Positions 6,221-16,681 of a stretch of DNA of 39,664 nt are shown here, piece by piece (the stretch's first letter is position 1; each line of letters opens with the position of its first letter). Where the stretch lies: the NCBI GenBank assembly GCA_002372175.1, contig DFIS01000080.1:1-39664 (forward strand), given 5' to 3'. Made by a program: the position numbers and the translations under genes. Below the pieces are notes generated by a model, which was not told the origin of the DNA, did not search any database, and saw only the letters and a list, made by a program, of their open reading frames with translations. This DNA comes from Solobacterium sp. UBA3691 (GTDB taxonomy: Bacteria; Bacillota_I; Bacilli_A; Erysipelotrichales; Erysipelotrichaceae).

Positions 6221-6290
6221 AGTATTCCTGCCATTTCTAAGCCCATGGGCAATCTATGGATATTGTACCAACGGATAAGAGAAAGAGGCA

Positions 6291-6325
6291 ATAAAACAAA
6301 ATACTCCTGTTGGACAAGAGTATTT
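6291..6325 (-). terminator. Weak candidate terminator between the island and the M16 peptidase gene
   Basis: On the minus strand, AAATACTC (pairs with 6318-6325), an 11-nt loop and GAGTATTT are followed by TGTTTTATT. The stem is AT-rich, so stability is low. Confidence 0.3.
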
Positions 6326-6553
6326 CTTTGCTGTCTCTCCCTGTTACTGCGGGACAGATATCGATTTACAGGACAATCAGCCACGGGGATGGGATGCATC
6401 ACATGACAAGTAACACAAACTTCTTCAATGCGTATTTCAGCAGAGAGTATCCCGCTAGATGTATGAAGAATTATCAAAAGATGATCAACTTCCGTACCGA
6501 TGCTCTAAGACATCATATTTCTTATTTAGAAACTGTAGAATTATAATTGCTGA

Positions 6554-9184
6554 TCAATTGATTTTCACCCACATAGCTGGACGGATCATGTACTCGTATT
6601 TTTGTTTAACAATCGGAGAATATCCATCAACGTATATACCATACAAGCCAATGCCTCCATCATGTACTCCAAAAGCAGCAGTATAAGGTTCTTGACCGGG
6701 CGAGCGCAGCCACCAATTAGAACCATTAGTGACATCGTTGACATAAACACCTTTCCCGAGTGTATATGGTGTTGCTTTTGCCAATCTTTCAGCATCAGAA
6801 TTAAAATACTGCTGAGCTTCCTGTATTGATAACAGGAATATCTTATCCTGTGTATCTTTTCCCGGATCTGTATTGTACTCCGGATTCTTGTCTGCTGTCA
6901 CAGTGCTTGTTTCAATGAGTGATTGTTCTTCACCGGTAAATGCTGATGAAATAAAATAACTATTCAACCATTTTCGAAGTGAACAAGTTTGCCATGTACC
7001 ATTCTCCCTTGATGTATCATATGGCTGACTGTCCAATCCGTATTCACTGATCAAAAGGATCCTGTTATCTTCTTTTGCTAAAACTTTCCATGTAATAGCT
7101 TCTTTGCCATTAGAAGTACTCGCATCCTGTTCATATGAACCAAATGTTACTATTTCTCCGGGCTTGGCAACCATAACTGTAACATACGGATTTTCTTCTC
7201 TAATAGATGCTGCCAGTTCAGCGCTGTCTTTATATCCATTCAAACCCATCAATATCTCATATGCGCCGGCATAATCTCCATTTTCTCGCATAGCAATTGC
7301 GGATTTATACTTATTGCTTGGAATTACCGTTGTTCTTATGATCACAAAAGCAACCACACAAAGAACCAAAACAGCAGTAACTATGCCAATTATGCTCTTT
7401 TTCTTTTTACGGGAGATTTCTTCCTGTTTTCTCTGAATCGCATACTGTCGCTCTATTTCTTTGCGATTCTCTTCTGTTAATCTGTCTATCTCCTTCTGGC
7501 AATACTCTGAATAACCGCCGCTTTCCTGATAACCCTTAAGCGAATCAAATACTGTTTTTGCTTTTTCAAAAGACGTTATATCTGTTGCGGCATTCATCGC
7601 AGTAATAGCTTGTGTATAGTCCAGATTTCTCCTTTGCTCTGCCTGCTCAGCCAATGCCTGCACTTCTTTATCTGCTTGTATAAGGAAAGCAGCATAATTA
7701 CTCTTCACCTTAGAAATACTGTTCTCATCTGTCTTTTTAGCAAGGGTGATACGCTCGTCCAAAATACGGTTTAATTCTGAGAGTTCATTTTCCAGCTTCT
7801 TCTTTGTTTCACCTTTAGCGTATTGTAATGCTCTGGTCAGATTACGTTCTGATTCCAATTCTTTTTGCAGCTTTGATTTTTGAATTCTTCTGCTTTGAAG
7901 ATAAGAGTCAAATCCAAGATCATATTGATATTGTCTCAGAATAGCTTCTCTGTCCAGGTATCCGTCAATACTGTATTTCTGTACTGCTGCATTAATATGA
8001 TCATTATCTTCCTGTCCTGCTTTTACTCGCTGGATGCCGGCATGTTTATACTCTTCTTTGTAATGATTAAACAAAGCTTCAAGATTTGGCTGACGGTTTT
8101 TCAGCAGAAGTTTTCCAAGATATGCTTCTGCAGATTCAGGCTCCTGATTCAGTGCTTCTTCAAAGAAACTATCGGCTTTATCCCATTCCTTGTCCTCAAG
8201 AGCTATCATGCCTCTTTTGACAAATGCCGAGGCACCACCTGAAGAATTGTTCTGAGTAACCGCCTTCTGAACAAACGGGGCTGCAGTCTCCTTTATAACC
8301 ACCTTTTTGATTCCACGAACCACATCATTGATAAATCCAATCTTACTCATGTCCTGTGCCTGGAGATGTGAGAATTCTTCAGGCAGGTCATATGCATCCA
8401 TATCTCTGTAGCAAGGAATCAGCAGCTTGGTACGGTCTTTTTTCATCAATTTCAGGAAACGTGACCATTCGTTCTTTACCCATACTGCATTGAAATACTC
8501 CGGTCTAGTGCCAATCACCAGCATTACTTTTGCTGTATTCAGTGCTGAGAAAATATACGGTTCATATTCTTTTCCCAGTTTATCTTCCAAAGTAATAGCC
8601 GCAAAGAATACTTTAAATCCTTCACGTGTCAGTTGGTAATAGATTTCATTGGCAATCACACTATCCTGTGTTCGTTTCCCAGATTCATCCGTCTCCTTAT
8701 AGCAGATGAAAACATCATATGGATCTTCTTTCTGTGCAAGGGCAAGGATTCCGCGCTGGATCTCATCGATCTCTTTAGCCTGAGCTTCATAGATTCCTCT
8801 TTGGGCAGTATCTGCGTAATATAATGCGTTCTTATAATCTTCATCCGCAGTGACTGATTCATATGACGCACGATGGCATGTCGGAACTCTCTTATACGTC
8901 ACCGGATCTTCAACATACTCAATACCGTACTTACAGAGGATAAGCCCCCAGTATGCTTCAGCTTCTGTTTCACTCCTCTGAAGGATCTTTTCATAGATCT
9001 CTGCTGCTTTATCAAACTCAGAGCGCATACGAAGCGTATTTGCTCTGTTGAAAAGCGTCTGCAAACCTTCATCATGAACAGAAGGAATTGTTTGTCTGGT
9101 ACCGCAGAACTCACATTCACATACCCTGCTTCCCTCTATAACGGTTAAATCACCGCCGCACATCTTACATTTCCATACCACCAT
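6554..9184 (-). CDS. Transmembrane TIR-domain protein: N-terminal Zn-ribbon, TPR-like region, TIR domain, TPR, long coiled coil, one TM helix, C-terminal DUF6273-like domain
   Basis: I moved the start to the ATG at 9184 (AAGGAG RBS 8 nt upstream); the track ORF starts at 9214. Zn-ribbon: CKMCGG...CECEFCG. TIR-like block: YDVFICYKETDESGK...AVWVKNEWSRFL, nt ~8315-8719, with the candidate catalytic Glu codon at 8468-8470. TM helix: KKKK-SIIGIVTAVLVLCVVAFVII-R, nt 7337-7396. The C-terminal domain has the SNWWLRSPG and RPAMWV motifs typical of DUF6273. Confidence 0.8.
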   Translation of the reverse strand: MVVWKCKMCGGDLTVIEGSRVCECEFCGTRQTIPSVHDEGLQTLFNRANTLRMRSEFDKAAEIYEKILQRSETEAEAYWGLILCKYGIEYVEDPVTYKRVPTCHRASYESVTADEDYKNALYYADTAQRGIYEAQAKEIDEIQRGILALAQKEDPYDVFICYKETDESGKRTQDSVIANEIYYQLTREGFKVFFAAITLEDKLGKEYEPYIFSALNTAKVMLVIGTRPEYFNAVWVKNEWSRFLKLMKKDRTKLLIPCYRDMDAYDLPEEFSHLQAQDMSKIGFINDVVRGIKKVVIKETAAPFVQKAVTQNNSSGGASAFVKRGMIALEDKEWDKADSFFEEALNQEPESAEAYLGKLLLKNRQPNLEALFNHYKEEYKHAGIQRVKAGQEDNDHINAAVQKYSIDGYLDREAILRQYQYDLGFDSYLQSRRIQKSKLQKELESERNLTRALQYAKGETKKKLENELSELNRILDERITLAKKTDENSISKVKSNYAAFLIQADKEVQALAEQAEQRRNLDYTQAITAMNAATDITSFEKAKTVFDSLKGYQESGGYSEYCQKEIDRLTEENRKEIERQYAIQRKQEEISRKKKKSIIGIVTAVLVLCVVAFVIIRTTVIPSNKYKSAIAMRENGDYAGAYEILMGLNGYKDSAELAASIREENPYVTVMVAKPGEIVTFGSYEQDASTSNGKEAITWKVLAKEDNRILLISEYGLDSQPYDTSRENGTWQTCSLRKWLNSYFISSAFTGEEQSLIETSTVTADKNPEYNTDPGKDTQDKIFLLSIQEAQQYFNSDAERLAKATPYTLGKGVYVNDVTNGSNWWLRSPGQEPYTAAFGVHDGGIGLYGIYVDGYSPIVKQKYEYMIRPAMWVKIN

Positions 9185-9265
9185 ACTTAAGTCTCCTTCG
9201 TAGTTTTCTGGCAAAAGCTATTCCTATTACATTTTTGGTTTATGATTCACCTATTTGTTATATTT

Positions 9266-10207
9266 CTATCCTTCAAAAATATCGGTCAAATGCTCATCCA
9301 AAAAGTTTTCTAGAGCAGCATTTACCAATCTCAGACACTTCAAATCCAAATCATTTTTAAACGCTATCAGCTGTATCGGTCTATTTGCATGAAACAGTGT
9401 GCACCGAAGGTAATATGACAGTTCACCGACGATAAATCCCTCTACGGTGATATCCTTTTTGACATGCTTTTCTATATAATGACTGATGATCTTATATGTT
9501 TTGGTTTCACTGTCCCGAATATCCTTCAGGAAGGTGTTTTCGCTGACTTCCTGCAGTGCCAAAAGCGGAGATTTTCCTAAGCTTTCTCGTTCTCTCTGTA
9601 TCAGCATTTCATTTCCAAGATGATATCGCCTTAAAATTCTCTCTATATTGGGTTTATCCTTATGTTTTTCAGCATCACGTCTGGATGAATAAAAACCATT
9701 AAATGCCATCCAAAGATTCTGAAACCGTTCTGTTTCATATGCTCTGCTTTTGCTGTACAAATATGCAGATAAAGCCGCGCTCTCACTTCCCTTTTCGGTT
9801 TTTGTTGCCGACATCGCTTTTTGAAGGAATTGAGTTTCCTTAACGTATTCCGGCAGGGGTCTCAACAATTTGGAATTGATCATCGAGTAAGGCATAAAGC
9901 TTGTATCGATAATCTCCTTACATTCATTCCCATCAATCACAGTTAATTCAAAGCATTGATTCTTGATAGGTGCTTCATATAGAAAAAGATGCAGGATCAT
10001 TGCACGCCTGATTCCTTCTCTCATGAGATTGATAAGATACTGATTATTTGTTTTTCTATAATCTTTACCAATCAAAGCACTGATCGTGTACTTATCCTTT
10101 GCTATCCGAACACTAATGTGATGGGTTCGCTGAAAAGAGAATTCAAACTTTTTAGCTCTTCTCAATTCATCATTACAGTTTACCTTTAACAAGTATTTCA
10201 GTTTCAT
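9266..10207 (-). CDS. Hypothetical protein with a C-terminal HEPN-like Rx4H motif (candidate RNase effector)
   Basis: 313-aa AT-rich ORF. The C-terminal helical half contains YYL-R-CTLF-H-ANRP (R268/H273, nt 9389-9406), which fits the HEPN Rx4-6H signature. An upstream helix ERFQNLWMAFNGFY resembles the first HEPN helix. The N-terminal ~130 aa are unrecognised. The functional call is tentative. Confidence 0.4.
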   Translation of the reverse strand: MKLKYLLKVNCNDELRRAKKFEFSFQRTHHISVRIAKDKYTISALIGKDYRKTNNQYLINLMREGIRRAMILHLFLYEAPIKNQCFELTVIDGNECKEIIDTSFMPYSMINSKLLRPLPEYVKETQFLQKAMSATKTEKGSESAALSAYLYSKSRAYETERFQNLWMAFNGFYSSRRDAEKHKDKPNIERILRRYHLGNEMLIQRERESLGKSPLLALQEVSENTFLKDIRDSETKTYKIISHYIEKHVKKDITVEGFIVGELSYYLRCTLFHANRPIQLIAFKNDLDLKCLRLVNAALENFLDEHLTDIFEG

Positions 10208-10277
10208 TCTTTTTCCTATTAACGTGACAGCCCTGAGGAACAGGGTGTTTTCACGTCTCTTATTGATCTGTTTTCAT

Positions 10278-10967
10278 TTACTTGTTTCGTGCACAAAGCA
10301 CATTTCTTTCTTTCAGCTGTGCAGTAATCTTTAAACAGCTTTTCTCTGCTTCTGAACTATTCTTTTCCGTCAGATATTTCTTCAATTTTTCCATCTCGTT
10401 CAGAAGATCATATTCATGCTGGATCGTCGCATCAGACGATACCGGATCACTATATTTAAACTCTTCTGTAAGATCCTGAAGTTTTTTCTTTAATGACCCA
10501 TCCTCACAAATACTAACTAATGCTGAACAGGCTGCCTGTAATGAACGCATGTTCGTAGTATCTTTCTTTATCTTTACTTCCTGTCGTTCTACTTCTTCTC
10601 TTGCTGCATCTGCTGCTACAGTACCTATAACAGCCAATGCTGCGGGCAGTATGTTGATCACGACAGCGATCCATGTCTTTATATATGGCGCAGCAATCAT
10701 CCCAATCAGACTGATCACCAACTGGGCAATCATATACATGACTCCTACACGTGCAATAGGAAAACCATAGAATTTACTTTTTGTTTCTGCTCCGTCAGCA
10801 AACGATATTTTCAGAACATACACCTGGAATACGATGGCAATTACACCAAACAGATATGAAATCCAGAAAACAGCATTTTTATTAAATGGAGCCGCAAACG
10901 CTATAACACTGAAGACGGCAAATATTACAGAAAGGATGATATACCGACGAAGTTCGTTTTTAGACAT
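10278..10967 (-). CDS. Hypothetical 4-TM membrane protein with a ~100-aa cytoplasmic helical tail
   Basis: 229-aa ORF with four clear hydrophobic helices followed by a charged helical C-terminus (…LQDLTEEFKYSDPVSS…). Its start lies 3 nt after the SPFH gene stop, which suggests tight coupling. Confidence 0.6.
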   Translation of the reverse strand: MSKNELRRYIILSVIFAVFSVIAFAAPFNKNAVFWISYLFGVIAIVFQVYVLKISFADGAETKSKFYGFPIARVGVMYMIAQLVISLIGMIAAPYIKTWIAVVINILPAALAVIGTVAADAAREEVERQEVKIKKDTTNMRSLQAACSALVSICEDGSLKKKLQDLTEEFKYSDPVSSDATIQHEYDLLNEMEKLKKYLTEKNSSEAEKSCLKITAQLKERNVLCARNK

Positions 10968-10969
10968 GT

Positions 10970-12820
10970 CTATTCACCTCTTCTCTTTCCGCATATATTG
11001 CAGAAGTTACCGATTATATTCTTGTTACCGCACGAGCAATCCCATGTTGCAGGAACCGACGGTTCCGGTCTCCTGGCTCCGCACATATTACAGAAATTGC
11101 CAATGATATTCTTATTGCCGCATGCACAGTCCCATGTATCCGGTTTAACAGGCTGCGGTCTTCTGGTTCCGCACATATTGCAGAAGTTACCGACGATATT
11201 CTTATTACCGCATGTACAGTCCCATGTATCTGCAACCGGCTGTGTACTTGTTGCAGGATTCGGTACTGCACCTGTCTGTGTCATGTTCATATTTTGGAAC
11301 ATACCGCCAATCTGCGGTGCAACTGCATTCATTGCAGCAAGTCCTACACCAAGACCAAGCATGTCACCCATAACATTGGAGCCCCCGCCTGCAGAGATTG
11401 CCGGTCCCATATTCCCGATTCCTTCAGCATATGCTTTCTGCACTTCAGCCTGCAGTACGTCCCTTTGAGAATATCCCTTGGCAGCCATAACCTCTGCTTC
11501 TGTTAAACCTGCCATTCTCTGTGCCTGCGCTTCCGCCTGGGCAGCAATGACTCTTCTTTCAGCTTCACGTCTGGCGATCTCCGTTTCAGTCGTCTGTCTC
11601 TGCAGTTCAGCTTCACGGCGTGCTGCTTCGATCGTCGCTCTGCTTTGTTCCTGCGCGGTTCTGTACTGAGTCTCTGCCTGTGCCTGTACAGTCTTTATCG
11701 TTGCATCTGCCTGCACAACTCTTGCCTGAAGGGTAATTGTATGCAGTTCTCTTATCCGTTTGAAATTCGGATCATTTTCCGGAAGCACCACACTTGTTAC
11801 ATATAACTGAGGGATGGTTAAACCATATTCTTCAAATCCCGGAAGAATCTTCTGTCTGAGATTTTCAGATATAAGATCCAGCTTCTCATCAATCTCCAAA
11901 AGATCAATATTCTCATTTTTAATTACTGAAGACAGATTGGTTTTTACAGCATTTGCGATTAATGGCCGGAAGGATGCCTGAAGTGATTTTGTCATACCTT
12001 CCCCACCGTCCCATGAAACTCCTTTTGTTGTTCCTACAAGCTTTACAAGCAGTTTCCTGGCATTAGATACCTGTAGATTCATTTCACCGGATGCTCCGAT
12101 CTCCAACGGTGTACCGGTCAATGGATCAATGAAGCGTACTTTTTCCGGTGTCCCCCACTTAATAGCCATCTGAACAGTCTTATTAATAAAATACACTTCA
12201 GAGTGGAAAGTCCTGTCTGTATCTGTAGGCAGCTGATAAATAGAATCCAAAATCGGAAGTTTCTGAGTTTCAAGTGTGTATCTGCCCGGTCCAAACAGAT
12301 CTAACGCCTGGCCATCTCTGAAAAAAACCGCTTCCTGACTTTCGTGCACGATCAACTGAGATCCCATATTGAAATCTTCTATAGGATGCTTCCAGATAAA
12401 AGTATTATTATCTCCTTCATATTTGATGATGCTTGCCAGACCGTCTTTTCTCATCTTTTCAGCCATCAGGCGTTCCGGAACATTATTCACAAAGTCACAA
12501 ACTGGACATGTATAGGAAGATGCCGCCTTGCTGGTGATCAGTTTCACACCACATTGGGCGCAGGAAAATTCTGCCATTTTATCTTGGCCTTCCATCGTAT
12601 TGATTGGTTCTCCGCAGACAGGACACTTCGCCTTTGCTCCTTTTGACTGATCAAAAACAACATCATTGCTGCAGTGAGGGCATTTTCTGCTTATAAGTTT
12701 ATCCATACGAACATTAATCGTGTAACCGCAGGAACAATCAATTTTCTTTCTTGCAAAGAACCCACTGCTTGCTTCTACATATTTGCCGCAGTTCGGACAC
12801 TCCATTACGAATTTAGACAT
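10970..12820 (-). CDS. SPFH/Band-7 family protein (YdjI / COG4260-like) with three N-terminal Zn-ribbons and three C-terminal RanBP2-like Zn fingers
   Basis: 616-aa ORF. N-terminal CxxC pairs: CPNCG...CSCG, CPHCS...CPVCG, CAQCG...CPVCD. The central region (IIKYEGDNNTFIWKHP...SQLIVHESQEAVFFRDGQ...) is typical of YdjI-type SPFH proteins and is followed by an A/Q/E-rich coiled coil. The C-terminus has 3x TWDC.CGNKNI.GNFCN.CG.RR. A GAGGGAG RBS precedes the start. Confidence 0.8.
   Translation of the reverse strand: MSKFVMECPNCGKYVEASSGFFARKKIDCSCGYTINVRMDKLISRKCPHCSNDVVFDQSKGAKAKCPVCGEPINTMEGQDKMAEFSCAQCGVKLITSKAASSYTCPVCDFVNNVPERLMAEKMRKDGLASIIKYEGDNNTFIWKHPIEDFNMGSQLIVHESQEAVFFRDGQALDLFGPGRYTLETQKLPILDSIYQLPTDTDRTFHSEVYFINKTVQMAIKWGTPEKVRFIDPLTGTPLEIGASGEMNLQVSNARKLLVKLVGTTKGVSWDGGEGMTKSLQASFRPLIANAVKTNLSSVIKNENIDLLEIDEKLDLISENLRQKILPGFEEYGLTIPQLYVTSVVLPENDPNFKRIRELHTITLQARVVQADATIKTVQAQAETQYRTAQEQSRATIEAARREAELQRQTTETEIARREAERRVIAAQAEAQAQRMAGLTEAEVMAAKGYSQRDVLQAEVQKAYAEGIGNMGPAISAGGGSNVMGDMLGLGVGLAAMNAVAPQIGGMFQNMNMTQTGAVPNPATSTQPVADTWDCTCGNKNIVGNFCNMCGTRRPQPVKPDTWDCACGNKNIIGNFCNMCGARRPEPSVPATWDCSCGNKNIIGNFCNICGKRRGE
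10973..11227 (-). repeat. Three tandem ~90-bp coding repeats (one Zn finger each)
   Basis: Repeat units lie at about 11138-11227, 11048-11137 and 10973-11047 (the last is truncated by the stop). The periodicity also shows in the antisense ORF 10998..11468 (LQKLP.IFLLPH.QSHV x3). Confidence 0.85.
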
Positions 12821-13014
12821 TATAATTCTCCCTCTTCAGTGCTTTTACTTATCTCCTGAATCACTTCATTAAAAACAGTCAGACTGTTCTTCTTGTTAAT
12901 TGGTATATCAAGAATTTTTGCGTCATGATCCATATTCATTTCTGCTGATAGCCTACAAATATATACCGATATTATTTTGCCGATTTTTTGCGATCTACCA
13001 CGATATATGAACAT
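12820..13014 (-). CDS. Possible small ORF (39-64 aa) translationally coupled to the SPFH gene
   Basis: Its stop TAA overlaps the SPFH ATG (TAATG). I recognised no family and the start is uncertain (an internal MNMDHDAK... start is possible). It could be spurious. Confidence 0.25.
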   Translation of the reverse strand: MFIYRGRSQKIGKIISVYICRLSAEMNMDHDAKILDIPINKKNSLTVFNEVIQEISKSTEEGEL

Positions 13015-13152
13015 TGATCTTTTGACTTTGTTATTACAGCAAGTTCGCTCTGTCCTGCCTTACTTCCGTAAATCTCAAATACATTGCTATGTGATTATGG
13101 GATCGACGCTTTGCAACATTTCCCGGGCTTCGCTGGATTTCTGATTTTAGGA

Positions 13153-15738
13153 TTAGTCGATTTTCACCCATAAAGCGGGGCGGACCGTGTTACTGTCATC
13201 ATCCACGGAGTCGCCGATCACATCGACAAGAACAGAGATCTTAGCAGCAAACCCGGAATCGCTGCCGGGCGACCGCAGCCACCAGGAACACATTCCTTTG
13301 TCATTTGTATAAGCTCCATTCTTTTTTGCGTATGGCGTTGCTTTAGCACTTCTATTTTCATCGGATTTGAAATATTTGTTTACTTCAGGCACAGATAAGA
13401 GAAATATCTTATCCTGTGTATTCTTACCAGGGTCTGCAGGATACTCAGGATTCTTATCCGCAGTTACTTTTGTCGTAAGAATCCGTGCTTTTTCCTGTCC
13501 ATTAAACACAGTATTATAGAACTCTTTATTCAACCATTTTCTTATCGAACATTTTTCCCATGTTATACTTTCGTATTCTTCGTTGTATGGCTTCGCATCA
13601 ATTCCATCTTCTGTAATCAGCAGTGCTCTGTCTTTTTTAACTTCAAGTATTCGCCATTTAATTGGTTTCTTCTGAGAATCATATTGATAAGTGCCAAACC
13701 CTTGACTTATTATTTGAGCTTTATTAATTAACGGGTTTATTGCATTTATAATCATTGCCTTTGCAGAGACAGTATTATTTTGATGTATGATTACTGCTTT
13801 CTTTTCCGGCTTTGGCTTTTGTACGGGTTTATCTGCTGGCTTGGTCACTGGTTTCGTTTCAATGAGTGTTTTTTTCAAAGCCGCAATATTATCCTCCAAC
13901 TCTTTTCTCTTTTTGCCGGAGAACAAACCTTTCAAATTCTTTTTTTCAGATTCTAATTTCTTTATTTTCTCTTCCAATTCACCTTTTTTCTTCTCTGCGG
14001 TTATACATGATTCTTCATAATCAATTTTGGATTGTTCCCATTTCTTTACAGCTAGATTATTATCGTTTTCCCATTGACTAATATCTCTCTGGTAAGAATC
14101 TTCAGCGTCTTTTTCCGCTTTCTTTCTTGCTGTTTCTTCCTCTATTTTTATTTTGGAAATCTGATCAGCATTTTTTTCTAAACGATCAGAAATATCTCTT
14201 TTAAACAATTCTGACTGTTCAGCCAATAATTTTTCTGCATTTTTTCTCTTTTCTAATTCTTTTGACATTTCAGATTTAAGAAGATCCCTGAGTTTGTCGA
14301 TCACTTTGTTTATTTCTTTTTCAACATTTCCATCTTTGTATCTGCATGCGCGTTTGTAATCGCGGTTGTTAAGAAGTTTCCCAAGACCTTCAACTGATAA
14401 ATTTCTGAATGCCTCCCTATAGCACACAGGATCCTCTAGTGTAAATGTTATTTTTTCAGGATGTAAGCCAATCAGCAATTTATCCAGTTCCTGATCAGAG
14501 AATTCATCGAGGAAGTGCCGAGAATCTGCTTCCCTTGCATATGCATGCGCCTCAAATGGAAGCGTCTGAACCCATAAATGTTCTTGCGCGTGCTTTTTAA
14601 TCTGGTCAAATAATTTTTTTGCCAATTCTGCTGAGCAATTCGAATTATACACGCACAGTACTTTCCCCCAGTAAGCAGCGCCACATTCTGCATCATTGTT
14701 AAGAACCTGCTCATAAAACTCATTAGCTCTTGTAAAATCACCATCTTCAATTGCCATATTGCCACGTTTCAATAGTGACTGTGTCTGCGCGTTCAAAACT
14801 GACAGCCCGCTGTCAGTATTTTTTTCTTCTTTTTCCTTATTATCTTTTCTCAGAATTTTATCGATCCCTCTCAAAAGATCCTGCATTGCACCTACTTTTC
14901 CCATATCTTGTGCCTGCAGTCTTGCAAATTCCTTCGGCATATCATATGCATCCAGATTTTTATATACCGGGATCATTGTTTTCTTTTCTCCTGAAGCTAT
15001 AAGATGAAGATATCTACTCCATTCGTTCTTTACCCATACCGCATCAAAATATTCAAATTTTGTTCCAACGGCCAGCATCAGTTTGGCGGAATGAAGTGCC
15101 GCAAAGATATATGGTTCATATTCCGTGCCGAGTTTATCTTCTAACGTAATTCTGGAGAAGAATACCCGATATCCCTTTTCAGTTAAAGCATTATAAATAT
15201 CCTGTGCCAGAACACTGTCCAGTGTCCTTTCTCCGTTTTCATCGGTTTCTTTGTAGCAAATAAAGATATCATACGGCTGTTCATTGGAAGATACTTCTAT
15301 TATGCCTTTTCTCAGATCTTCAATTTTCTTAGCCTCGTCACGATATACACGCTTTGCAACTGCATCAGCATATTCCATGACCATCTCATAATTATTGTCA
15401 TCAAAAATACTTTCAAACGAGGATCTGTGGCAGGTAGGCACTTTCTTTCCGGTTAGCGGATCATCAACATACTCTATTCCATACTTGCAAAGAACCAGTC
15501 CCCAGTATGCTTCTGCTTCTTCCTGAAATTCAGAAATGATAGCTTCATATACACCGGCAGCTTTGTCGAATTCATTATTAAAACGAAGTCTGTTTGCCCG
15601 TGTAAACAAATTCATCTTTTTTTCATTATCCGCATTTGGAATTGTCTGCAAAGTTCCGCAGAATTCACATTCACATACTGTACTGCCTTCTATCGGTGTA
15701 AGATCTCCACCGCACATTTTACATTTCAGAGCCACCAT
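13153..15738 (-). CDS. Soluble TIR-domain protein, paralogue of 6554..9184: Zn-ribbon, TPR-like region, TIR, TPR, long K/E-rich coiled coil, P/K linker, DUF6273-like C-terminal domain; no TM helix
   Basis: 861-aa ORF with a GGAGGG RBS. The first ~290 aa are collinear and gap-free with the other TIR protein (about 60% identity by eye). TIR block: YDIFICYKETDENGE...AVWVKNEWSRYL, nt ~14869-15273, Glu codon at 15022-15024. The C-terminus has the CSWWLRSPG and RPALWV motifs. Confidence 0.8.
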   Translation of the reverse strand: MVALKCKMCGGDLTPIEGSTVCECEFCGTLQTIPNADNEKKMNLFTRANRLRFNNEFDKAAGVYEAIISEFQEEAEAYWGLVLCKYGIEYVDDPLTGKKVPTCHRSSFESIFDDNNYEMVMEYADAVAKRVYRDEAKKIEDLRKGIIEVSSNEQPYDIFICYKETDENGERTLDSVLAQDIYNALTEKGYRVFFSRITLEDKLGTEYEPYIFAALHSAKLMLAVGTKFEYFDAVWVKNEWSRYLHLIASGEKKTMIPVYKNLDAYDMPKEFARLQAQDMGKVGAMQDLLRGIDKILRKDNKEKEEKNTDSGLSVLNAQTQSLLKRGNMAIEDGDFTRANEFYEQVLNNDAECGAAYWGKVLCVYNSNCSAELAKKLFDQIKKHAQEHLWVQTLPFEAHAYAREADSRHFLDEFSDQELDKLLIGLHPEKITFTLEDPVCYREAFRNLSVEGLGKLLNNRDYKRACRYKDGNVEKEINKVIDKLRDLLKSEMSKELEKRKNAEKLLAEQSELFKRDISDRLEKNADQISKIKIEEETARKKAEKDAEDSYQRDISQWENDNNLAVKKWEQSKIDYEESCITAEKKKGELEEKIKKLESEKKNLKGLFSGKKRKELEDNIAALKKTLIETKPVTKPADKPVQKPKPEKKAVIIHQNNTVSAKAMIINAINPLINKAQIISQGFGTYQYDSQKKPIKWRILEVKKDRALLITEDGIDAKPYNEEYESITWEKCSIRKWLNKEFYNTVFNGQEKARILTTKVTADKNPEYPADPGKNTQDKIFLLSVPEVNKYFKSDENRSAKATPYAKKNGAYTNDKGMCSWWLRSPGSDSGFAAKISVLVDVIGDSVDDDSNTVRPALWVKID

Positions 15739-15905
15739 GATGATCCCTCCATTTCCCCTTATAATTGATTAAGATTATCTATTTATCGCAATTCGCTCAA
15801 TCTGGACTAAAACGTGTACTTTTTTGCTTGGTAATATGTCTAAATCAAATTTTAACATATACCGCTCTTTATGCGCATAACAATAAGGTACTTAGAAGCT
15901 AATAC

Positions 15906-16597
<692 letters not shown>

Positions 16598-16627
16598 TCA
16601 TCCATGTTTTCTGCGCATGCATATATG

Positions 16628-16669
16628 AAAAAGTCACCTGTATGTAACCCTTGATTTGATACAGTTGAC
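16628..16669 (-). terminator. Rho-independent terminator of the citDEF/dehydrogenase operon
   Basis: On the minus strand, GTCAACTGTAT, a 15-nt loop and ATACAGGTGAC (10/11 pairing) are followed by TTTTT, 13 nt after the dehydrogenase stop. Confidence 0.65.
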
Positions 16670-16681
16670 TTTCTTTCTTTA

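Follow-up and report, generated by a model that had tools for sequence, protein, structure and literature searches.

Known bacterial immune proteins with a TIR (Toll/interleukin-1 receptor) domain, such as Thoeris ThsB, TIR-STING, TIR-SAVED, SpbK and others, perceive infection within the cytoplasm. In Gram-positive bacteria, the PASTA kinases PknB/PrkC and the RsgI anti-sigma factors join a cytoplasmic N-terminal signaling domain through one transmembrane (TM) helix to an extracellular C-terminal sensor. Domains of the C-type lectin (C-lectin) fold have been described as 'antigen sensors' in fusions with conflict-system domains, TIR among them, for which both cytoplasmic and periplasmic placements were predicted (Kaur et al. 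2020; Dore et al. 2024). A 2025 survey of Thoeris lists no type with SPFH or four-TM (4-TM) partners or with ectodomains. Here we describe, by computation, the domain content, TM helix, orientation signals, folds, modularity and gene linkage of a TIR protein, gene A, encoded on the 39,664-nt contig DFIS01000080.1 (GCA_002372175.1) of Solobacterium sp. UBA3691; this contig, at its full length, is the window referred to throughout. Gene A is probably a conflict protein of the bacterial TIR kind, with a membrane layout like that of a receptor, and represents a previously undescribed family. A literature search, which did not extend to all journals, returned no description of the family or of a link between TIR and SPFH proteins, and the family is not represented in PADLOC.

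Gene A and its predicted topology

Gene A is read from the minus strand and comprises the following features, in order from the N-terminus of the protein.

6554-9184, minus strand: gene A, a TIR-TM-DUF6273 protein of 876 residues (open reading frame call, Pfam), with its stop codon at 6554-6556
9089-9172, minus strand: Zn-ribbon, residues 5-32, with C6, C9, C24 and C27 (cysteine conservation, AlphaFold2 (AF2) model)
8732-9073, minus strand: TPR-like helices, a conserved beta-hairpin and a long helix, residues 38-151 (Pfam, AF2 secondary structure)
8297-8722, minus strand: TIR domain, residues 155-296
8468-8470, minus strand: codon of Glu239 within the motif AVWVKNEWSR (invariance, alignment to the flax L6 TIR)
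8093-8230, minus strand: second TPR, residues 319-364 (Pfam TPR_2, TPR_6 and TPR_19)
7397-8092, minus strand: charged helical linker, residues 365-596, poorly conserved (sequence, alignment consensus)
7337-7396, minus strand: single TM helix, residues 597-616, SIIGIVTAVLVLCVVAFVII (hydropathy, shuffles, conservation, bias of Lys and Arg)
7172-7327, minus strand: juxtamembrane TPR-like helical hairpins, residues 620-671, motif GxYxxAxxxxxxLxGYKDS, on the predicted outer side
6557-7153, minus strand: C-type-lectin-like DUF6273 domain, residues 678-876, the predicted ectodomain
6584-6694, minus strand: most variable segment of the ectodomain, residues 831-867, between WWLRSPG and RPAMW (column entropy)

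The original prediction had placed a TM segment preceded by KKKK at nucleotides 7337-7396, and the helix lies at exactly these coordinates. SIIGIVTAVLVLCVVAFVII presents 20 uncharged residues with a 19-residue Kyte-Doolittle (KD) mean of 3.32, while the next best stretch of the protein reaches 0.89, and its rough Hessa sum is -4.9 kcal/mol. Across 2000 shuffles of the gene A protein the maximal KD mean averaged 1.47 +/- 0.29 and peaked at 2.77, with none at 3.32. A search of 5.8 billion proteins returned at least 8000 homologues of gene A; in the best 120, which share 41-100% identity and supply the TM statistics given here, a single TM helix occupies the equivalent place in 120 of 120 (one stretch of KD at least 1.8 in each).

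The charges around this helix are strongly asymmetric. Within flanks of 15 residues, gene A has seven Lys and Arg residues on the N-side, including the KKKK run, versus three on the C-side; the corresponding means for the best 120 homologues are 7.2 and 1.8, with an N-side excess in 119 of 120. Diverse single-pass relatives behave alike (7.0 versus 2.1), and the bias points to an inside N-terminus in 71 of 73. The N-terminus of gene A is itself a polar Zn-ribbon and has no N-terminal signal peptide, as befits a single-pass type II protein. The predicted topology is thus very probably that of a type II single-pass protein with the N-terminus inside and the C-terminus outside (N-in/C-out), in agreement with the earlier proposal, made from the positive-inside rule, that the N-terminal ~600 residues are cytoplasmic. 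N-in/C-out is the sole reasonable prediction, because the reverse would require the export, without a signal peptide, of the 596 residues on the N-side of the helix, which hold the Zn-ribbon, the TPR helices, the NAD-using TIR and the helical linker.

The ATG at 9184 is preceded by AGGAG, 8 nt upstream, and the homologues share their start Met with it; a TTG at 9214 is for both these reasons an unlikely start. Pfam matches to gene A comprise TIR_2 at residues 158-280 (E 1.4e-11; score 45.4 bits, cutoff 28), DUF6273 at residues 706-874 (E 6e-30; score 104.7 bits, cutoff 23.5), and TPRs at residues 43-81 (TPR_1/TPR_14) and 319-364 (TPR_2, TPR_6 and TPR_19). In an alignment of 81 sequences C24 and C27 of the Zn-ribbon are invariant, and conservation at C6 and C9 is 90% or higher. 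The AF2 model of the N-terminal module, residues 1-310, has a mean predicted local distance difference test (pLDDT) score of 88.4 and forms beta-hairpins at residues 21-23 and 30-32 of the Zn-ribbon. Residues 38-151 belong to a conserved N-module that is 55-82% identical across representatives of the family.

The TIR domain has the flavodoxin-like TIR fold and contains the W-x-x-x-E motif of catalytic-type TIRs. Its glutamate, E239, is invariant in 81 of 81 sequences; within AVWVKNEWSR, V236, N238 and W240 are also invariant, and the remaining residues are at least 90% conserved. In a pairwise alignment that is itself weak (E 0.12), E239 pairs with the Glu of the flax L6 TIR motif SKWCLMEL, the catalytic residue of TIR NADases. 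Judged by this glutamate, the gene A TIR appears to be of the catalytic (NADase) type and would cleave NAD+. The linker that follows the second TPR (residues 365-596) terminates with a GYxxS hairpin motif and then KKKK, and its composition suggests coiled-coil character. A helical-hairpin motif, Y/F-x2-A-x3-F/L-x2-L-x-G-Y-K/Q-D/E-S, occurs at residues 545-575 and again at 636-660; the two copies flank the TM helix, at nt ~7460-7550 on the predicted cytoplasmic side and at ~7205-7279 on the predicted external side.

The predicted ectodomain, the soluble paralogue and the family

The original prediction had assigned a putative ligand-binding domain to the C-terminus. In the AF2 model of the C-terminal 260 residues (pLDDT 95.4), a short stalk of TPR-like helices adjoins the membrane and leads into a globular domain that has both the DUF6273 profile and the C-lectin-like fold and that matches secreted or surface proteins. 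The closest solved structure is the N-terminal DUF6273 domain of an IgA protease from the gut bacterium Thomasclavelia ramosa (9qa6), and the Legionella adhesin Lcl is a further structural relative. A Foldseek comparison with viral models matches the ectodomain to phage DUF6273 proteins. Published work places DUF6273 in the receptor-binding proteins of gut phages, as a C-type-lectin-like module diversified by diversity-generating retroelements (DGRs). In the gene A family, residues 831-867 reach a column entropy of 2.1-3.2 bits and contain insertions and deletions, versus ~1-2 bits elsewhere in the ectodomain; according to the published position, this segment is the site of the variable region (VR) in DGR-targeted C-lectin domains. 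The gene A protein is identical in three independent assemblies of the species.

The same cassette encodes a second TIR protein, the soluble paralogue named in the original prediction.

13153-15738, minus strand: gene B, 861 residues, Zn-ribbon-TPR-TIR-linker-DUF6273 without a TM helix (identity, hydropathy)

Gene B is 38% identical to gene A and has the same domain order, with a maximal KD mean of 1.08 and hence no hydrophobic segment. TM and soluble forms stand together in 11 of 70 species-representative loci, so the pair recurs in other genomes; in locus L009, for example, a soluble 865-residue gene adjoins a TM-bearing 939-residue gene. Sequence comparison indicates that the soluble form is a conserved clade and not a relic, and that DUF6273 fused to the TIR module is also used in the cytoplasm.

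A search with the N-module returned 7196 representatives of 50%-identity clusters (4170 at E<=1e-30). The best 150 were classified by membrane architecture, and the counts of architecture and of DUF6273 below refer to these.

Single-pass with a C-terminal domain: 73 of the best 150 representatives
Multi-pass: 23 of the best 150 representatives
Tail-anchored: 5 of the best 150 representatives
Soluble: 49 of the best 150 representatives

About two thirds (101 of 150) are therefore membrane-associated in some form. Except in two of the 150, the N-module keeps an identity of 55-82%, versus 33-52% for the ectodomains, and the proteins range from 436 to 1591 residues with variable content outside the N-module. 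DUF6273 is present in 40, after a TM helix in 23 and without one in 17. In 20 single-pass members that lack DUF6273, Pfam assigns the C-terminal domain to RCC1-like propellers (13), LRR_5 (5) or RHS repeats (1), and leaves one unassigned. BLAST clustering of the ectodomains merged all of them via their common juxtamembrane repeats.

Some C-terminal domains bear on location. P0246, a TM-bearing protein of 1300 residues, has two DUF6273 domains and a C-terminal FMN_bind domain with the flavinylation motif DGVSGATW (SGAT). FMN_bind domains are extracytosolic and are flavinylated outside the cytoplasm; P0246 would therefore join a flavoprotein module of extracytosolic location to a TIR protein. 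In P0189, which is also TM-bearing, Peripla_BP_4 and then DUF6273 follow the TM helix. The soluble members include 4Fe-4S (P0146), ankyrin (P0331) and WG-repeat domains, as well as LRR_5 and DUF6273. Compartment-restricted domains thus track the presence or absence of the TM helix, since FMN_bind and Peripla_BP occur with it and Fe-S and ankyrin domains without it, while general binding scaffolds are found in both settings.

An arrangement of TIR, TM helix and BspA-type leucine-rich repeats (LRR_5) was observed in members P0263, P0298, P0265, P0325, P0342 and P0380 and at loci L020, L023, L030, L052 and L082; it amounts to the domain set of animal Toll-like receptors (TLRs) in reversed order. 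TM-less LRR versions also exist (P0269, P0294 and P0312).

The N-module was found in at least 591 stretches of GTDB species-representative genomes; the hosts are Lachnospiraceae, Oscillospiraceae, Ruminococcus, Acutalibacteraceae, Erysipelotrichaceae and further taxa of the gut and rumen. Among 2.9 million viral contigs only 2 loci were found, so this is not a phage family.

The cassette and its partner genes

Gene A and gene B lie within a low-GC island that is set between housekeeping genes, an M16 peptidase and a 2-hydroxyacid dehydrogenase/CitF. GC content within the island is 0.38-0.42, with one 1-kb segment at 0.47, versus ~0.51 in the flanks. The cassette runs in the order recombinase, gene B, a small open reading frame, an SPFH protein, p229, p313 and gene A; the genes are co-directional and tightly spaced. 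Its further features are listed below.

6221-16680, no strand: low-GC island containing the whole cassette, ~10.4 kb (composition profile)
15906-16567, minus strand: serine recombinase (resolvase/invertase), apparently frameshifted (NCBIfam and Pfam Resolvase matches, two overlapping open reading frames)
10970-12820, minus strand: SPFH protein, YdjI-like and soluble, a conserved partner (Pfam Band_7_1, 129 bits)
10278-10967, minus strand: p229, four TM helices and a C-terminal helical tail, a conserved partner
9266-10207, minus strand: p313, an orphan of 313 residues in a variable slot

Linkage counts cover the 38 loci whose sequence spans 15 kb or more, with partners within 10 kb; paralogues and recombinases were counted in all 79 loci. 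A homologue of the SPFH protein is present in 31 of the 38 long loci and a homologue of p229 in 29 of the 38; the SPFH gene also accompanies 27 of 29 soluble genes that lack DUF6273. In the window p229 lies directly downstream of the SPFH gene, across a 2-nt gap. The SPFH protein combines five N-terminal CxxC motifs, a Band_7_1 domain and a Gly/Met-rich low-complexity stretch, has no TM helix, and gave no match in a sequence search of the PDB. Its N-terminal Zn-ribbons resemble the Zn-ribbon at the start of the TIR proteins. Its C-terminus carries three tandem Zn-finger repeats, TWDCxCGNKNIxGNFCNxCGxRR, which by eye are RanBP2-type-like; the underlying DNA at 10979-11243 consists of three 85-nt copies spaced 90 nt apart. 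The TM helices of p229 lie at residues 6, 31, 71 and 96, and its orthologues in loci L006, L007 and L009 are 39-49% identical.

The third slot is variable. For p313 there was no Pfam, NCBIfam, PADLOC or PDB sequence match, and 2 homologues were found in 5.8 billion proteins; near its C-terminus LRCTLFHANRPIQLIAF is strictly conserved, and the R-x4-H spacing recalls the motifs of HEPN RNases. In three other loci the slot holds SIR2_2/AbiH-like genes, and in another a DUF2971 gene. The SIR2_2/AbiH-like genes encode ~300 residues and stand amid TIR genes (L007, 10689-11609; L011, 1829-2734; L006, 15274-16182), a TIR and SIR2 pairing that recalls Thoeris, here without a SLOG or Macro sensor domain.

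Multiplication of the TIR gene is common, and 25 of the 79 loci have two to five TIR paralogues. Locus L006 (Oribacterium sp. FC2011, JNJM01000010.1, 100118-118940) holds at least six TIR-family genes whose C-termini are DUF6273, RCC1_2 or absent, together with fragments: a 90-residue Zn-ribbon piece, a 311-residue TIR-only gene, and DUF6273-only genes of 570 and 507 residues. This array suggests recombination among the highly similar N-modules. A 64-residue open reading frame between the recombinase and the SPFH gene of L007 (4992-5186) resembles a ribbon-helix-helix regulator (RIPKDMLQDIDFVAKESGRTRNEIV); the small open reading frame in the same position of the window (12820-13014, minus strand) is unrelated to it.

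The recombinase breaks frame at an A5 run, GGGGAAAAA, at 16244-16258, beyond which a canonical resolvase continuation is found in the other frame. Three other assemblies of the species call the same truncated product of 193 residues, so this is probably either a genuine pseudogene or a site of slippage. The recombinase is a rarity among these cassettes, present at 1 of 79 loci. In three different genomes, a segment of 90-130 bp between the recombinase and the first cassette gene is bounded by an inverted repeat of 12-13 bp whose core is GTGTAC/GTATAC (window 15810-15824/15915-15929; L004 5451-5463/5578-5590; L007 ~4815-4830/4955-4975). The segment may be an invertible promoter switch, a candidate that we set aside: no sigma-70-like site was found within it, the three assemblies L001-L003 show it in a single orientation, and few loci have the recombinase. 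Invertible gene segments or a shufflon within the island were likewise rejected, as the inverted repeats found there were weak only.

Proposed mechanism, rival explanations and known systems

In the mechanism that we propose, the variable C-terminal domain would recognize a ligand, at the surface in the case of gene A or in the cytoplasm in the case of gene B, and the proteins would cluster through the helical linker. Clustering would bring the TIR domains into an active oligomer at the membrane that cleaves NAD+ or produces a signal, an activation like that of other TIR enzymes that require higher-order assembly, and the SPFH/4-TM pair would serve there as scaffold or effector. The likely ligands would be components of phages or other invaders, and the cassette would therefore be an anti-phage conflict system with both outside- and inside-looking sensors. 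We infer NADase activity, ligand-induced activation, the roles of the SPFH/4-TM pair, the defense function and, as the original prediction had suggested, the sensing of phage adsorption at the surface. Taken broadly, the best overall explanation is a modular TIR conflict cassette that senses at the surface and in the cytoplasm with the help of an SPFH/4-TM pair, and this is probably correct. A receptor-type defense mechanism is plausible, if somewhat short of probable. The fullest version can be offered only tentatively: a set of surface pattern-recognition receptors of gut and rumen Clostridia, whose swappable ectodomains would sense phage or foreign ligands before entry, whose TIR NADase would act on an SPFH scaffold, and whose soluble paralogues would guard the cytoplasm.

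Several results weigh against this surface-receptor picture. DUF6273 also sits in TM-less proteins, as 91 of the best 120 gene B homologues are without any TM helix; the domain is not intrinsically extracellular, and neither DUF6273 nor LRR_5 says anything about location, because both occur in conserved TM-less relatives. The ligand could accordingly be identical inside and outside the cell. A cysteine-exclusion test of export gave 2.37 Cys per 100 residues in TM-linked DUF6273 domains versus 2.63 in soluble ones (p 0.066). The indirect tests of an outside location are hence mixed, with accessory-domain co-variation in its favor and cysteine content not. The multi-pass share of the family (23 of 150) is a better fit to 'membrane anchoring or effector' than to 'receptor' as the common theme. 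There is no sign of ongoing diversification of gene A, because three assemblies carry the identical protein. PADLOC, NCBIfam and Pfam recognized no known effector among p313, p229 and the SPFH protein, and gene A falls outside Thoeris as presently modeled, with 25.9 bits against a cutoff of 220 for NCBIfam ThcB4 and 16 bits (E 1e-3) for PADLOC ThsB.

Among the rival explanations, the main one is that the TM helix and ectodomain only tether the TIR module to membrane or cell wall beside the SPFH/4-TM complex, the trigger being envelope perturbation (phage DNA injection, lysis from without) or a cytoplasmic cue in place of a DUF6273 ligand. Membrane association, whether single-pass, multi-pass or tail-anchored, is indeed the commonest trait of the family, an SPFH protein of YdjI type and a protein with four TM helices are the conserved partners, YdjI and its anchors act in membrane surveillance in Bacillus subtilis (PMC8581546), and soluble relatives retain these partners. 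However, C-lectin, LRR and propeller ectodomains are classic scaffolds for ligand binding, here exchanged and rapidly diverging beside a TIR module that remains constant, and an anchor would need neither such diversity nor several paralogues per locus; we therefore consider a simple tether unlikely, though it deserves to be taken seriously. A decidedly less probable alternative retains the surface sensor and changes its ligand to host or community molecules (mucosal glycans, IgA, neighbors), with the TIR tuning NAD metabolism or signaling for colonization. It would suit a family confined to gut and rumen Clostridia, whose closest solved structure comes from a gut-bacterial IgA protease and whose structural relatives include the adhesin Lcl; it sits poorly with a mobile low-GC island with a recombinase, paralogue arrays, SIR2_2/AbiH-like neighbors, a catalytic-type TIR typical of conflict systems, and soluble forms that have the same domain.

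Two further possibilities concern gene A itself, and both are very improbable. The hydrophobic segment might not truly span the membrane, or the protein might be inserted N-out/C-in with a cytoplasmic DUF6273 as in gene B. In favor, the gene B clade demonstrates that TIR-DUF6273 proteins are viable in the cytoplasm, and cysteine depletion is not seen in the ectodomains; yet such a reading would have to accommodate a KD mean of 3.32 over 20 uncharged residues beside KKKK, a TM helix in every one of the 120 homologues with a consistent charge bias, the signal-less export of 596 residues, the Zn-ribbon and the NAD-using TIR among them, and the FMN_bind and Peripla_BP domains that follow the TM helix in TM-bearing relatives. 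It can hardly be correct. Nor is the DUF6273 domain at all likely to be the target of a DGR, as happens in phages of the gut and with the C-lectin 'antigen sensors' of multicellular bacteria, even though DUF6273 is a documented DGR target fold, the highest variability falls where the VR would lie, and TIR/C-lectin DGR targets are known in Thiohalocapsa (PMC10907252). The 39.7-kb window contains no template-repeat-like copy of the 3' ends of gene A or gene B, no reverse transcriptase is present among the called genes of this locus and eight related loci, and the protein is unchanged across three assemblies. DGR targeting was accordingly rejected for the window locus, where no repeat of the template-repeat/VR type and, here or in the related loci, no reverse transcriptase was found; the rest of the genome lay outside this search.

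We thus retain the modular conflict cassette with receptor-like TIR proteins, and its parts can be compared with several described systems. Gene A shares with Thoeris ThsB and other bacterial TIR sensors a catalytic-type TIR and the habit of several TIR paralogues per locus, and SIR2-like genes are adjacent in some cassettes of the family (at other loci, not in the window). ThsB is small and cytosolic, however, whereas gene A is membrane-embedded, and no ThsA-type effector (SLOG, Macro) is present here. Like the C-lectin 'antigen sensors', gene A places a C-terminal C-type-lectin-fold domain on conflict-system domains. Those sensors are of the DGR-diversified FGE-sulfatase type, with STAND or vWA/MoxR modules, in cyanobacteria and proteobacteria, whereas gene A has neither DGR nor NTPase, carries the DUF6273 subtype, occurs in Clostridia hosts and has an SPFH partner. 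The IgA protease 9qa6 and the phage DUF6273 receptor-binding proteins differ further, being secreted or part of the virion and lacking a TIR or TM anchor.

For the partner genes, the closest counterpart is YdjI of B. subtilis, a soluble SPFH protein with a low-complexity stretch and a C-terminal Zn finger that needs YdjG and YdjH as anchors (PMC8581546). Compared with that published description, the SPFH protein at 10970-12820 shows the same layout and has a downstream multi-TM gene. Unlike the PspA-YdjGHI module, the cassette has no pspA and its SPFH protein has extra N-terminal Zn-ribbons; homology of p229 to YdjG or YdjH is not established. We know of no described link between YdjI and a TIR protein. 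The SPFH/4-TM pair that is tied to this family has no known immunity role. In the logic of its topology gene A is equivalent to PknB/PrkC and RsgI, with which it has no sequence relationship; its output domain is a TIR.

The original prediction likened gene A to animal TLRs, and that likeness holds in outline only: as in TLR and interleukin-1 receptors, a binding domain would lie outside, one helix would cross the membrane and a TIR would lie inside. The polarity is reversed, and gene A is not a member of the TLR class. As a type II protein it lacks a signal peptide and bears its TIR at the N-terminus, whereas TLRs are type I, with a signal peptide, an N-terminal LRR ectodomain, a TM helix and a C-terminal TIR; its ectodomain is a C-lectin-like DUF6273, and the LRRs of its relatives are BspA-type and C-terminal to the TM helix. 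Its TIR keeps the NADase-type Glu and so is not a pure adaptor, a Zn-ribbon/TPR module precedes it, and the system is without adaptor partners. The resemblance is one of architecture, and descent is not implied. Relatives with BspA-type LRRs nonetheless make the comparison more literal than originally drawn. The family is large, uncharacterized and experimentally tractable: membrane and soluble paralogues in one operon offer a natural comparison for experiments, and the swappable ectodomains offer a route to ligand discovery. If the proposed mechanism is true, bacteria couple TIR signaling to extracellular events by the logic of animal TLRs, and this family would be a prokaryotic counterpart of outside-in TLR-type TIR signaling, including members with the LRR-TM-TIR set.

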